Part shown: positions 20,523 to 44,014 of the stretch, piece after piece
Position numbering within the stretch: the first letter of the stretch is position 1
How the letters are laid out: each line of letters begins with the position of its first letter
From: Eledone cirrhosa
Taxonomy: Eukaryota
Assembly (NCBI GenBank): GCA_964016885.1
Contig: OZ024744.1
Coordinates: forward strand, 90,334,001-90,398,000
Length of the DNA: 64,000 bases
Direction of reading: 5' to 3'
The notes under the pieces: model-generated
Database searches by the model: none
What the model was told of the DNA's origin: nothing
What the model saw: only the letters and a program-made list of their open reading frames with translations
Translations under genes and position numbers: made by a program

Positions 20523-21628
20523 TATGATTAAAAAAATTCTTTCAGAAATGGTACCATGATATAGCTTTGACAAACAATACAAATTGCATCAGGTTACTGG
20601 TAACTGGGCCATTTTGATTTGCTTATTCATTTCCAGAGTATTTAATCCCGAAGAGCCCAATGAGGTAGAATGGTTGAAAAGAGTGTGTCGCTGACTGTAT
20701 TCTGCTGTAATGCCTTCATCATTTTGTCTGTCTGTGGGTTGCAGCTGAGATATAATGCCTTGATTTCACTGAAAAGTCTGTCAATCCCTGCCCCCCTTCC
20801 ACTTTCGTTATATAATTTTTTGGTTTTCACTTTCTAGTGTATTACCTACCTTTAACCCTTTAGCATTTAAAGTGACCATATCCGACCAGAATTCTCCCAC
20901 CTCTTTCTGATCGTACTGGTTGTAACTGGCCGCTCATACTGATGTTAAGGTATTGTTCTCAAAATAAATAGTATCAAAATCTCGTAGATTCGATATTATG
21001 TGAGGTAAAGCCTTTACAATAGTAAATATAGAGTAATGTAAATGCTAAAGGATTAAAGACATTTCTTTAATTTGCCATGTGGTGTAAATTTATTATTATT
21101 AAAGTGCTATGATGGTGGTATTCTGTAGAGCGCTTGAGTATTTTGTATGTCCTTGTTCATTCTGAATTAAAATCTAGCTCTCATCTCCCAGGGAACAATA
21201 CCAACTAAGTTCTTCCTTCATTTACTCTTTTTCTTTTATTTTTTTTATTTTTCTTCAAATTGATGACCTTGTCCCAGAATTAGAAGACTTTATTATTACT
21301 AGAATTTTTAAAAATATAAATGCGCAAACACACACACTTGCAAAAATACACACTCACACAAACACACACATACATTCACACAAACACACACATATATTCA
21401 TACACATAGTCACATACAGTGTAGGTTTTCACTATCCCCTTCCTTCCTTTTACAAACATACATTCATGTAGGCAGTAGATGTAAAGTGAGAGGAGTAGTA
21501 TGAGGTAGTCAAACTACTCCTCTCTCTTTACTTGTGAACAATTGTAGAAATTTATATATAGTTCCCGTCCCACACTTGCAAGCAGGGAAAAGCGGACGTA
21601 AAATGATGATGATGATGATGATATCTTT

Positions 21629-21850
21629 AGCGGTGAATTGGCAGTATCGGTAAAGCTCCTGACACCCTGCTTTGCAGCATAAAGTTATGGTCCTTTACGT
21701 TCTGAGTTCAAATCCTGCCGAGGTTAGCTTTGCCTTTCAACCTTACGGGGGTCAATAAAATTAAATACCAGTAATGCACTGGTGTTGATTTAATCCACTT
21801 TCCCTTCCCATTCAAATTGCTGGCCTTGACCCTAAAGTAGAAACAATTAT
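21629..21850 (+). mobile_element. tRNA-derived SINE family A (also ~25527-25745 +, 33345-33535 -, 49442-49635 -, 58105-58310 +, 60985-61150 -, 61815-62165 - twice)
   Basis: A-box-like TGGCAGTATCGGTA, B-box GAGTTCAAATCC, conserved core TTTGCCTTTCATCCTTACGGGGTCGATAAAAT..AGTACCAGT and (ATT)n tail. Confidence 0.85.
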
Positions 21851-21904
21851 TATTTCTTCAACAATTTCATGTGAATTTTTACTGCATCACCAGGTTCACC
21901 TCTG

Positions 21905-24900
21905 CATAATGCTCCCAGAGTGGGAATATATTATTTTTTAAAGTTTTTCCTATCATTGTTTATTGCAAATTTTCTGTTGAATAAGTCCTTTAGGGAGATA
22001 AAGCAAAAAAAAAAAAAAAACAGGGCTAAAAAGATTGTGTATAGAATTTTATGATAAAATTTAAAGTTAGTAATTTTGAAGTTCTTTTGCACAAAAAATT
22101 AGTTAACAAAAATCCTCAAAATATCTTGAAAAATCATCCAAAGTAAATAGGCCCTAAAATATCAAAGCCAGTAAACCAGAGATTAAACTGGCACTTTTAT
22201 GAAAGATAATTTATTGAATTTTACCCTACTAAGTGAAGTTTTTTAAACAAGTCTAACAAAAATCAGGCAGATTTTAGAAATGTAATAGTTTGTTGTAATG
22301 AAATTATTCCATTTTTGCTCTAAGAAAGTCTTCAGCAAACCAAAATGTTTAAAATTCCACGTCATTTTACACTATAGAGTTAGTACTTTCTGGAATCATC
22401 TGGCTATAGTAAACTTTTGAGCAAAAATTCAATGGATTGAAATGTTTAATATAGATATTTAGTGACATTTCATTATCCCAGTGTCCAATCCAGGGTAGTC
22501 AGGAGCTTTTGACACTGTTGACAAGAAAACTTTGTGCTGGCTGAAAAAGAACAGTACATGTACAAAATGTCTAAAACCCTGAAATTAGAGGGGCAACTCT
22601 ATCTAAAATAGTCACCATGTGATAGGGACTTGGTGTTGAGCAATAATTGATATTTAGAAAGAGGTAAGATAACCTCAGGAGAGCTACACTGCAGAAGGTC
22701 TTCATAGAAGAAACTCCGCTCAAACGAATGTTTTGGTCCTTGCAGTAACCAATACATATATAAAACTTAGAAAAGATTATACATTTTGAAACTGAATACA
22801 TGTATTAGTACAGACTTTTAAACTAATACAAAGATAATATTTTCTAGTGCTCCACAAATTCAATACTCAATATAGTTATACTCAATGTCTATGTAAAATA
22901 CATGGAGGTAATTTTGCTTTTCTCGTGCATTGAAACTGAAACATTCTTATGTTTGAGTAATTGAGCTGTATGTCTATTTCTCTACAAATGGAACAGCTAG
23001 GGTGAGGTCTTTTTGATGAAATGTCTGGATGAGACATTATAAGCATCCTTTGGAAGATGTCATGAATATTCTCTTTTACTGAAAACTGGCAAGATCTTGC
23101 AGCTGCCCCACTCAGGAATGACCTAACATGTTTGTTCCCCCTTTCAAGTAGCTTTTCACTTTATTTCGCAATTGACTGTCTACCATTCCATTCAAAGAGT
23201 TCCTAGCTGTAAGCACACATTTGATGAAATTATAGCACTCCATGAGAAACCTCTCTCACCAATAAATTAGTTTTTTTAGGTGTAACATTAAATATATCCC
23301 AAGAGCCTTAAGTCTGTCAGACCTTACTTTCTTCTGCACTGATTGTGTAACATGGAGTATACCGTTGGTCAGAGACAAGAATATTTCATAATTGCCCTTG
23401 TCTTCCTGGTTCAAAATGAGAGAACATATTTTGGTAGTTTTTCAGCCTGAAAAATCAGTCAGCCAATGGTCCCATATTGGTGTTGCCACCTATTCCATTG
23501 GGTGAATACATTACCATTCTAGTGATTCACCTGATATGGTCAATGCACTGTTGCTTGGAATGCTGAATAGACCAGCAACCAAGTGATACAAAATCTTTTG
23601 AGCAAAATCTAATGATCTCAGTTTGAAGTGAAGAACTGAGAAACAATGCAAATCTACTTTTATAATGTTTTCATGGCACTGAGCCTGTCTTTCACTGCTA
23701 GGATATGGTATCTCACCAGCAACCAATGTTTCCCATGCTTCCTTGAAGGAATTATAATCCTTTGGTATCTGGAATACATTAGATATTCATGAAGAATCAT
23801 TTGCATTAGCTCACGTGGCATGGCATAAATGACAGAAACAGAATGCACCACTGTCACCTTGAAGAAGAGATACCACCTTGCCATCAATCACTGAACACTT
23901 TTTTTCATATGACATTCACATTTATGTCATTCACTGTGACACATGAACCAAACCTTTCCTTGATAGTATCCAAAGAAGGCTCGAGTTCTACAGTCAACAC
24001 ATCTCGATTCTCTCAACGAAACTGGACAAGTAAACACAGTGCTGTTTGGATTAGGGTTTGTTCAAATGTTGTTAGCAAGCCTTAATTCTAATGGTTTATA
24101 ACATGATAATATAAATGTCTTTTTTGCTGGGTCCAGATGTGCAGTTTCAATAGCAACAACAGATGTTAACCAATTGTCAGATTTTGAGGGACCCTGGACC
24201 ATCAACACCAATTTTACTCTAGACTTCATATTGTGCTTCTTTTCTGATTTCACAGCTTGATATTCTAATCAATGCACTGGCTGTTTTTGCAAGTAAAGCT
24301 GTAATATCCACCAAAGATTTCAATTGAGAACTTTGAATCGGTGGATAGTAAGACTTCATTATCATTTTACGTCAGCTTTTCCTTGCTTGCAATTTTGTTT
24401 CTGGTTGGAAAAACAATATTATGAGGCAAACTCAATTTTTTAATCTTCTGATATTGGTGTGTGGACAAATTAACATGGAAAATGAGTGCGGTTGCATCAA
24501 TCTTGGGTAAGATTGCTTTCACAGTTGTTCCTGTGGATGAGCCTTTTCCTTCAGTATATTTTGCTCAGAAGCAAACTGCTCCATGCACAAAATGGCTTCC
24601 TTCAAAATCAATTGTGCCTTTTTTTTAAGGCAAAGTCAGTCACTTAACAGGACACTTGATGTGCCCTTCCTCTTCTCTTGTTCACAAATTTCAAATTCAA
24701 AGAAAGTCTTTTTTTTGCTATGTTTCAAGATCAGATGGTCAAGATTGGTCAAGACTGCTTCTCTAAGTATGCCAAATCCACCCCTATGAAGTAATTGATC
24801 AAATTTACAAATCTAACACATTTATTTTTCCACCAACCACAAATCATAGCAAGTAAACAATTTTTGTAGCAAATACCAGAAAAAGAAATCAAGTTATGTC

Positions 24901-25052
24901 TTCAAAATAAGATGCATTCTTTGAATAGTTTTAACTCCATCAGTTGCTGCTTGCCAAAAATGCTTCGAATGAGCTATAAATGATTTCTCTGCGTCAATTT
25001 TTTTGTGAAGATATGAATTTATTCCCATATTTGTCATTCTGGGTACACTGTG
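21905..25052 (-). mobile_element. Full-length decayed Transib/RAG1-like DNA transposon
   Basis: 5-bp TSD CTCTG at 21900-21904 and 25053-25057. Ends read CACAGTGTACCCAGA (from 25052, -) and CATAATGCTCCCAGA (from 21905, +). Encloses a RAG1/Transib transposase pseudogene. Confidence 0.88.
22950..24800 (-). pseudogene. Transib/RAG1-core-like DDE transposase pseudogene
   Basis: Hand translation across stops and frameshifts: ALIFHVNLSTHQYQKIK..VFP; KIGVDG (D at 24201-24203); TNPNPNSTVFTCPV; SVIDGK (D at 23883-23885); CHLC; VLHFKLR; GGNTNMG..D*FF; FHQMCA; SEKLLERGNK (E at 23143-23145); NIHDIF..ML..SHPDIS; CSIC. Order and content match known RAG1/Transib core motifs. Confidence 0.88.
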
Positions 25053-25860
25053 CTCTGTGCTCCAGAGATGTGTGTGTCAGTGTGGCTACATAAATTTTGT
25101 TTGCTGTTTCCAGTGTTTGTTCTGTTATGTAGTGTGAGTTGTGTTATTTTGTTTGGTGATAAATATGATTTGTCCGATGCTAACATGGAAAATGGACATT
25201 AAATGGTAATAATAATAATGATGATATGTTGTGTAATTAATAATGGGACGTGTAGCATTAATATGAAGTAAGTTTGTCTAGCATGTTGCTTGAATGATTT
25301 ATTGGTGTTGCAGTATCAATTATGTGTGTATGTTGTGTTATTTTAGTGGTTGTTAAGCCTGTAGAGTATTTGGTGTGTGGAAATTGTACTGTTTCAGTCG
25401 TGCTATTGAATCAATAGCGTTTTGCATAGAACGTTGGCTGTTCCTGACAGAGCTATTTTTTGTACACTATGTTGCATTGTGAGTTCTGGTTTGACTTCTA
25501 AGTTTTTGTTTATATTATTTTTATAAGGGTGGTGGATTGGCAGTATCGGTAGAGCATCAGACACCATGTTTTTCAGCATAGAGTTACGGTCCTTTATGGT
25601 CTGAGTTCAAATCTTGCTGAGGTTAGCTTTGCCTTTCATCCTTAGGCGGTCTTTAAAATAAAGCACCAGTCATGCATTGGGGTCAATTTCATCGACTTTT
25701 TCCTATCCCTTCAAGTTGCTGTCCTTGTGCCTATAATAGGAATGATTATTATTATTGTTGTTGTTACTATTATTATTGTTGTTGTTACTATTATTATTGT
25801 TTTTGTGTTTATTTTTATTATAATTATTATCATCTAGGTAGTTTTATTTGTGTTTTTCAG

Positions 25861-42659: not shown

Positions 42660-43983
42660 CAAGAAGAGCTGATTGGCCAGCTGCAGGAACAGCATTTTCA
42701 CCAATATATGCAGCAAGTCTATCGTCAACAGTTGATGCATCAACAGCAGCAATATATCCAGTTGCAGTCCCTGAATAGGCATTCTACAGTTCCTTGTTAC
42801 GACAACGCCGGTCCTTCGTCAACGCCTACAGCTTGCTCCAGCGGTGTCAATGGTAGTAGTAGTAATAGTAGTATTAATAATAATAATAATGATGGTTTGG
42901 CAAGCAGTAGAACTCGAGGAGCTGGTAGTAAAGCAGTGTCAGTGTGCGGTAATTCTGCAACGACTGCTAACCAGTTTGCTCACACTAACCACATCAACAG
43001 CAATAGTAATATTAGTAACAGTTGTGGTGTAAATAGTCATGATAGGAATCATAACAAAGCTGAGCTAGCTGGTGGTGGTGGTGGTGGTGGTGGTGGTGGT
43101 GGTGCAGTAAGTAGTAGTAATAATAATAGCATTAATGATAATCACTGGGCTGGTGGTGGTGGTGGTGGTGATGGTGGTAGTGGAATTAATCATAATATTA
43201 TGCAAAGTGGGGCTTGCCCAACGGCAGCCGAAGCCGGAAGTTGTGGTGTTGGATTGACAGGCATGAGTGCACCTACAATGGGAACAGTGCCACCAACTGC
43301 GATGACAGCTGCAGCTGAGGCTAATGTTAGTTCTGCTGCCGTTGCTGACCACACACAACAGGGCCCACCATTAGCATACACTTACAATGAAGGCCTCGAC
43401 GACAAAGCTAACTTCAACTGTAATAATATGTACGTAACAAAGACAAACAACAGCACCGCTATTACTACTACTACTACTACTACTACTACAGCAGCAGCAG
43501 CAAGTTCAACTAGTAATGCAGTGCACACTGAACAACAGGCTGAAAGGGCTGTAGTCCTGCATGCTAACAGTTTGTTTGGCGTCCCAGTTTCTGTAAGCCA
43601 TGACCAAGGCAGTAACATCTCCGCTGCTGCTGCCGTGCCTGGCAGCGTACCAGCTTTATCATTATTATCATCATCATCATCAGCGGCAGCAAACAGTACA
43701 CTACAGCCACACCAACACCAACACCAACAGCAACAGCAGCAGCCTATATTACTCTCACAAATCCCGCAACCGCCACACCCTGGCTTCTCACAGGAAAACG
43801 ATGGGATATACAACAACAACAACAACAGCTACTCAGCAAACAACAACAACAGCAGCACAGCAACACCACCCTCTCGTAATCCAGTGGTAACTGAGGAAGT
43901 TGGTGGTGGTGGTGGTGGTGGGGGGGAAGAGGAGGCTGTTGTCCATGGGAACCCAGATACTGTCGATGGCTATGGCGATATGG
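42660..43983 (+). CDS. ACBD3: ACBD3 coding exon 6 (end of Q domain plus long low-complexity linker)
   Basis: QEELIGQLQEQHFHQYMQQVY resembles [21 protein letters not shown]; frame open for 1324 nt to G|GTAGGT, and phase 1 matches the next exon. The 3' boundary is less certain. Confidence 0.8.
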
Positions 43984-44014
43984 GTAGGTCTCTTTCTCTC
44001 TTTATATACATGTG

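Follow-up and report, generated by a model that had tools for sequence, protein, structure and literature searches.

Transibs of Subgroup I, which have asymmetric ends, an α11–α12 region and a CTT1 tail, have been called Transib–RAG1L intermediates (Tao et al. 2022, PMC9435367). In the available text of Martin et al. (2023, PMC10462144), asymmetric ends, a CCGHC tail and a GRPR/K motif were all identified in Transibs, and the accessible part of an earlier study (PMC1131882) reported a 12/23-like layout of the ends of insect Transibs in 2005. Transibs are rare in molluscs, with one element containing an open reading frame of >300 amino acids among 14,275 DDE elements, according to the accessible text of PMC10294476. 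Here we describe a Transib-type element of 3,148 bp on the minus strand (21905–25052) of a 64-kb stretch of the Eledone cirrhosa genome (contig OZ024744.1, 90,334,001–90,398,000; called the window, to which all positions refer). It is a dead, nearly full-length copy of a single-gene cut-and-paste transposon, very probably of the Subgroup I type, whose enzyme of ~710 amino acids is predicted to resemble the RAG1 core in fold and likely cut at two unequal CAC-type ends with no RAG2 partner.

The 3,148-bp element flanked by CTCTG that the preliminary description had proposed was borne out at both junctions (Table 1); agreement at 5/5 positions precisely at the termini has a probability of ~0.0015 by chance. 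Perfect target site duplications (TSDs) of 5 bp, as expected of a Transib, were seen at the window copy and at three further loci of its family (L047/L062, L065 and L053/L063), and 4/5 matches at at least three more. In contigs of run X1 the greater part of the element, together with its right junction, was matched with zero differences, and an assembly artefact was rejected on this agreement; the match is not independent support because the assembly may derive from X1. No RNA was listed among the sequencing runs containing the element, which has no bearing on expression.

The element had been called complete. This was right for both ends and the TSD but not for the interior, which contained 12 stops, 10 frameshifts and deletions. 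Frameshift-aware alignment of its gene with P0004, the closest intact relative (711 amino acids), covered residues 74–711 (337 of 593 identical, 57%), with frameshifts near 24541, 24390, 24173, 24013, 23907, 23575, 23436, 23276, 23230 and 22973; no counterpart of P0004 residues 1–73 was recognisable in the element. Compared with the family consensus, 11, 37 and 147 nt were missing. The catalytic acids and zinc-site motifs claimed for this copy were all present in the decayed frame (D codon of KIGVDG at 24203, SVIDGK at 23885, H of SVLHFK at 23630, H of FHQMCA at 23226, E of LLERGNK at 23145, and CHLC), and its LLERGNK reads ESWNK in relatives. When the decayed frame itself was used as query, neither Pfam nor PDB gave anything useful, and intact relatives were required.

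Relatives at E ≤ 0.001 comprised 338 cluster representatives. Eighteen relatives had at least 514 amino acids, 14 of them 702–723, mostly on contigs of 2.6–3.7 kb. GRP motifs were present in 15 of 18 full-length relatives, preceded by about 90 residues. In 26 aligned relatives D, D, C, H and E were kept without exception, and a profile of the 26 aligned D, D, C, C, H, H and E with those of HzTransib, BbRAG1L and RAG1. The gene was thus of the Transib kind, a DDE transposase that has a C2H2 zinc site and is homologous to the RAG1 core. Scans for the DNA of the relatives gave one locus in metagenome contigs, with no recognisable ends; prokaryote genomes and viral contigs gave none. On a metagenome contig of 2,728 bp (L036), a frame of 718 codons was intact; it belongs to the sister subclade and has a full Cx2Cx3GHx4C tail, and no terminal repeats were on this contig.

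Codon spacings in the window copy were 106 from the first to the second catalytic Asp (D1–D2), 246.7 from the second Asp to the Glu (D2–E) and 65 from CxxC to His, in agreement with the ~106, ~247 and 65 given previously. The corresponding ranges in the 26 relatives were 107–120, 257–264 and 62–69, with CxxC–His exactly 65 in 19 of them; the shorter 106 and 247 of the window copy were due to small deletions in this copy. Counting by hand from the profile alignments gave 99/211/31 for HzTransib, 110/252/61 for BbRAG1L, and 254 (D2–E) and 65 (C–H) for mouse RAG1, matching the values previously given for HzTransib (99/211) and mouse RAG1 (254 and 65). An intermediate spacing was not borne out, since D2–E in the relatives exceeded that of both RAG1 and BbRAG1L, and spacing was rejected as evidence for an intermediate position, the intact relatives being RAG1-sized or longer.

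The extra D2–E length was not private to the window copy. Because CxxC–His was 62–69 in all 26 relatives, it is a trait of the family, and a copy-specific insertion was rejected. That the element is a classical Subgroup II Transib carrying such an insertion is scarcely credible: its best sequence match is indeed HzTransib, but the extra ~34 residues occurred in 26/26 relatives and in other genomic copies, and a classical-type Transib protein (P0254) had 33 residues from CxxC to His and scored 256 bits to HzTransib against 78 for P0004. The α11–α12 region thus had the length reported for Subgroup I (31–33 in classical Transibs, 61–65 in BbRAG1L and RAG1), and neither the loss of α11–α12 nor the CTT2 tail of Subgroup II was found. 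The family and HzTransib (6pqn, Subgroup II) share IDGK and G-T--G motifs, a single gene, CAC ends and a 5-bp TSD; HzTransib differs in its shorter spacings, in having no Cx2Cx3GH tail in the aligned region and in a lower fold match.

The profile of the 26 relatives scored 165 bits against HzTransib (E 2e-47), 61 against BbRAG1L (6e-16) and 46–57 against RAG1 (1.5e-14). P0004 as a single sequence scored 78 bits against HzTransib and 15 against RAG1, and BbRAG1L was not listed at E ≤ 1. P0251, a Bolinopsis (ctenophore) protein resembling MleTransib_3931 by eye, scored 49 bits against BbRAG1L and 37 against RAG1. P0004 scored 123 bits against P0251 and 56 against P0254, and was 22% identical to the ctenophore-type P0201 (alignment A3). 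In sequence terms, a ctenophore Subgroup I-type protein stands at least as near to RAG1 and RAG1L as the family does.

The structural superposition that had been proposed was made with an AlphaFold model of P0004 (predicted local distance difference test score, pLDDT, 83.8; predicted template modelling score, pTM, 0.70). The model was nearer to RAG1 (Z 28.2, 527 aligned, root mean square deviation [rmsd] 10.2; Z 26.8, 485 aligned, rmsd 3.3; and Z 26.4) and BbRAG1L (Z 26.0, 494 aligned, rmsd 3.5) than to HzTransib (6pqn; Z 22.4, 429 aligned, rmsd 6.4), and the next-best family had Z 10.6. Model residues 106–677 aligned on RAG1 405–1008, including the nonamer-binding domain (NBD) region, and the tail of BbRAG1L was also reached. 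The family thus appears Transib-like in sequence, with a predicted architecture that is RAG1-like.

A new lineage closer to RAG1L than any known Transib would fit this fold, which is nearer RAG1 and BbRAG1L than HzTransib into the NBD region and the BbRAG1L tail, as well as the CxxC–His spacing of 65 shared by RAG1 and most relatives and the position of the 26-row clade on a long starred branch of the tree, apart from the ctenophore-type proteins. We consider it improbable: P0004 scored lower than P0251 on RAG proteins, the profile preferred HzTransib by ~100 bits, and the RAG-like traits were already listed for Subgroup I (PMC9435367).

The 3′ part of the element gave no Pfam match in six frames, its longest stop-free stretch in the consensus was 63 codons, and no trace of RAG2L was seen. 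Of the features of RAGL or ProtoRAG transposons, a linked RAG2L gene was therefore lacking (no RAG2L-sized frame in a non-coding 3′ part), as were N-terminal non-core zinc motifs and RAG1L-type sequence. A RAGL transposon that lost RAG2L, a route raised in the accessible text of PMC7204232, would have accounted for a fold like that of RAG1 as well as for the GRP region, the tail and the asymmetry of the ends, and RAGL elements do occur in molluscs. It is nonetheless very improbable, as the sequence is Transib-type, RAG2L has left no trace in the 3′ part, and the ends mismatch the protostome RAGL consensus, which has AAA at positions 8–10. As far as the available text of PMC7204232 describes the protostome RAGL, they and ProtoRAG (BbRAG1L, 6b40) resemble the family in core length, fold, tail position and 5-bp TSD, and differ in RAG2L, a long N-terminal non-core region, a Cx2Cx3GHx4C tail and another end consensus; BbRAG1L and P0004 were 17% identical in the fold alignment. 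The vertebrate RAG1 core (4wwx, 6dbi and 6cij) gave the top folds, including the NBD region, and shares CxxC–His 65 and CACAGTG; it differs in being domesticated, RAG2-dependent and acidic-tailed, with 18–19% identity.

The right end of the element, read on the minus strand from 25052, was CACAGTG, and the left end was CATAATG, which has decayed from the CACAGTG that the family consensus shows at both ends (30 ends each). The consensus ends were identical over their first 15 nt. An inner 12-nt box followed after a gap of 10 nt at the 5′ end and of 1 nt at the 3′ end, a 9-bp asymmetry. The two inner boxes were 11/12 identical in the window copy (shuffle p 0.0045, 2000 shuffles; 0/2000 real-window controls) and 10/12 identical in the consensus (p 0.027 and 0.039). 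Asymmetric bipartite ends as in Subgroup I were thus present in both the fossil copy and the consensus (9-nt offset), with the CAC start and inner A-rich box of Transib ends. At the 5′ end, the best match to the Transib nonamer given in the available text of PMC1131882 (7/9) lay 22 nt past the heptamer, and at the 3′ end (6/9) it lay 12–13 nt past, so that the A-rich boxes have a 12/23-like layout as in RAG. The flanks favoured C at −5 (18/30) and G at −1 (17/30), resembling the Transib target preference, CASTG/CAWTG, in the same text.

The preliminary description had stressed an exact V(D)J recombination signal heptamer. CACAGTG does stand at the right end but is ordinary for Transib and no special mark, because it also terminates MleTransib_3931 and PbaTransib_0868 (available part of the PMC9435367 supplement) and occurs 8 times in the window; as a special sign it was rejected.

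At the position of CTT1 the family has a Cx2Cx3GH motif. Among 52 distinct motifs of this kind in the relatives, 16 ended in the canonical x4C; a His at +7/+8 after GH was found in all 36 motifs without that Cys and in 1 of the 16 with it. The window copy and its family consensus carried the His form. In the tree, the window copy fell in a starred branch of 16 rows marked by the His form, and the 8-row sister of that branch had the Cys form, with the full Cx2Cx3GHx4C, wherever the sequence included the tail. Because the two forms sort by branch, the replacement of Cys by His was probably one event, not 36. The compensating fourth ligand suggests, from the motif patterns, a zinc-binding tail, which would likely bind zinc through Cys-Cys-His-His instead of Cys-Cys-His-Cys. 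No description of the His variant was found in the accessible Transib and RAG literature that was searched. P0019 and P0020, the earliest branch of the 26-row clade, had lost the Cx2Cx3GH tail and kept the long zinc domain.

The host genome is 3.0 Gb, and the family has ~40 loci in it, which is a lower bound. Queried with the whole element, the genome yielded 131 matches (best 40 of 594 candidates scored), mostly 72–90% identical; the 5′ 303 nt gave 41 matches (best 40 of 44 scored), and therefore about 40 loci. Collecting the copies and building a consensus, as previously proposed, gave ~40 relics, ~8.5% diverged and none intact. Divergence from the consensus was 0.060–0.125 with a median of 0.085 (40 rows, at least two repeating a locus) and 0.082 for the window copy; this spread fits one old burst. 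The consensus was identical to P0004 at 303/433 residues (70%).

Among the 34 distinct loci matching a junction probe, 28 spanned an identical ~600-nt deletion, through which the gene loses its N-terminal half together with the first catalytic Asp. Only one other locus (L022/L064) shared part of the deleted segment with the window copy, and in a protein search of the genome only the window copy matched before residue 271 (best 63 of 106 candidates scored). The window copy is the fullest relic found among the ~40 loci. No intact copy was found in the genome by the protein search (79 matches, best 63 of 106 candidates scored, in a stricter first look); a Pfam RAG1 search of the genome gave no match, and none in the controls either. 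Three loci (L090, 801 bp; L104, 616 bp; L110, 942 bp) were two-ended derivatives of the family, the size of miniature inverted-repeat transposable elements, with no clear TSDs. In the available text on the Drosophila Transib pair Nozomi/Kodama (10.64898/2026.08.26.747230), a derivative with a precise shared internal deletion likewise outnumbers the autonomous form; that pair differs in being recent, in having autonomous copies and in being modelled on HzTransib, whereas the window-family copies found were all broken.

The element had been placed between classical Transib and RAG1L. This was right in kind, as the RAG1-like extra length shows, but was not new, because the in-between grade is already in print as Subgroup I (PMC9435367). 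By the available text and supplement of that paper, the family and Subgroup I (MleTransib_3931, MleTransib_2823 and PbaTransib_0868) share a single gene, no RAG2L, a long zinc domain, GRP and Cx2Cx3GH; by eye they also share DGSG-H and HSWEL-type motifs, and the inner box of MleTransib_3931 and PbaTransib_0868 is set 10 nt deeper at the 5′ end than at the 3′ end, compared with 9 nt in the window family. The family differs in forming a separate clade and in its fourth tail ligand, His where theirs is Cys. What appears new here is the 9-bp end asymmetry in the window family and the replacement of the fourth tail cysteine by histidine.

Several points weigh against assignment to Subgroup I. The asymmetry of the consensus ends is only modestly significant (p 0.03–0.04) and comes from fossil copies, and most of the 20 two-ended loci had no matching TSD, partly through decayed or mis-called ends. 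The exact CCGHC motif was absent, and the tail counts are not independent, kin sharing a state. 6pqn is a DNA-free crystal form, and its conformation may partly lower the Z of HzTransib. The tree, built in quick mode, had an unresolved base and long-branch warnings; because it included one classical Transib and no RAG1 or RAG1L sequence, the placement rests on traits and pairwise scores.

There is an appreciable, if minor, chance that the family is already catalogued, e.g. in Repbase under a Transib of the Hydra type, or in Dfam under an octopus entry. Tao et al. used 67 Repbase Transibs, with HvuTransib-9_HMp among the aligned representatives, as far as the available text of PMC9435367 tells; however, GHTARS, QGDSGA, GSGSHK and cephalopod names were absent from the readable text of its supplement, and the accessible literature that was searched held no description of a cephalopod Transib family. 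Such an entry would be compatible with a Subgroup I-type Transib and bears on novelty alone. The clade, the altered tail and the presence in this genome appear undescribed and could be in Repbase.

Table 1. Parts of the Transib-type element and its junctions in the E. cirrhosa window
Feature	Position	Strand	Remarks
Left 5-bp TSD, CTCTG	21900–21904		window sequence
3′ terminal repeat, short end	21905–21932	+	outer 15-bp box 21905–21919, 1-nt spacer, inner 12-bp box 21921–21932
3′ non-coding part	21933–22888	−	without 147 nt that other copies have
54-nt insertion, private to window copy	22686–22739		by comparison with family consensus
Fossil transposase gene	22889–24716	−	matches residues 74–711 of intact relative P0004
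C-terminal tail motif Cx2Cx3(G)H, then His	22950–22995	−	frameshifted at Gly in window copy
Catalytic Glu codon, LLERGNK	23143–23145	−	aligns with active-site Glu of HzTransib and RAG1
Zinc-site CxxC to His, 65 codons	23628–23834	−	RAG1-length α11–α12-equivalent region; absent from HzTransib
Second catalytic Asp codon, SVIDGK	23883–23885	−	aligned with relatives
~600-nt segment, N-terminal half of gene with first catalytic Asp (24201–24203)	24144–24753	−	deleted in most other copies
~40-nt insertion from very common repeat tail	24356–24397		same tail at window 21571–21612
5′ terminal repeat, long end	25016–25052	−	outer 15-bp box 25052–25038, 10-nt spacer, inner 12-bp box 25027–25016
Right 5-bp TSD, CTCTG	25053–25057		window sequence

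The private 54-nt insertion, the read-contig depth of whose bin is very high, is likely a fragment of a high-copy repeat. Very high-copy repeats (contig depth 1e5–1e6) also flank the element at ~21540–21899 and ~25490–25600; the left one looks like a short interspersed nuclear element that ends close to the insertion site. Rfam gave no match. Elsewhere in the window, positions 42660–44000 (+) lie in a stop-free frame of 532 codons from 42453, where a likely exon starts glutamine-rich and continues into long homopolymer runs, with no Pfam match; the glutamine-rich stretch may be ACBD3/GCP60-like. A 158-codon frame at 28594–29067 (−) had no convincing Pfam match and presumably resembles the C-terminal part of the reverse-transcriptase protein of a long interspersed nuclear element. 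Positions 60–5050 are several kb of AT-rich microsatellite (GC 10–18% in the first 4 kb) with long meaningless open frames.

As in HzTransib, ProtoRAG and RAG, a transposase dimer would bind the 15-bp outer box, and the D-D-E triad may, by analogy, have cut by nick and hairpin at the CAC-type ends. Insertion would have had a 5-bp stagger, with C-A-N-T-G-like sites preferred. Recognition of the inner box probably fell to the N-terminal GRP helix region or to the tail and, more speculatively, the unequal inner boxes might have allowed a long end to be paired with a short one. The family would have passed through one burst, in which a derivative without the first catalytic Asp, mobilised in trans, outnumbered the full-length form, and all copies would then have decayed. 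A horizontal arrival is a speculative reading of the 70% identity to P0004, the one burst and the low copy number.

The solved Transib structures that we found are all of HzTransib, which is without the RAG1-like region, and Martin et al. (PMC10462144) write that the way in which the first RAG-like enzyme cut DNA could be revealed by biochemistry on more transposases of the Transib kind. The more than ten intact ~710-amino-acid proteins and the asymmetric end pair provide material on whether RAG1-type end pairing predates RAG2, and evolution itself, by exchanging Cys for His in the tail, hints at zinc binding by CTT1. We think it rather unlikely that the relatives form a large uncatalogued RAG2-free clade in which a core of RAG1 length and a GRP region resembling a nonamer-binding one go together with ends spaced 22/13 and a tail of a new Cys-Cys-His-His type. 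If this is true, the intact proteins of the clade would offer working models of the pre-RAG2 enzyme, and the clade might pair long and short ends as RAG does under the 12/23 rule.

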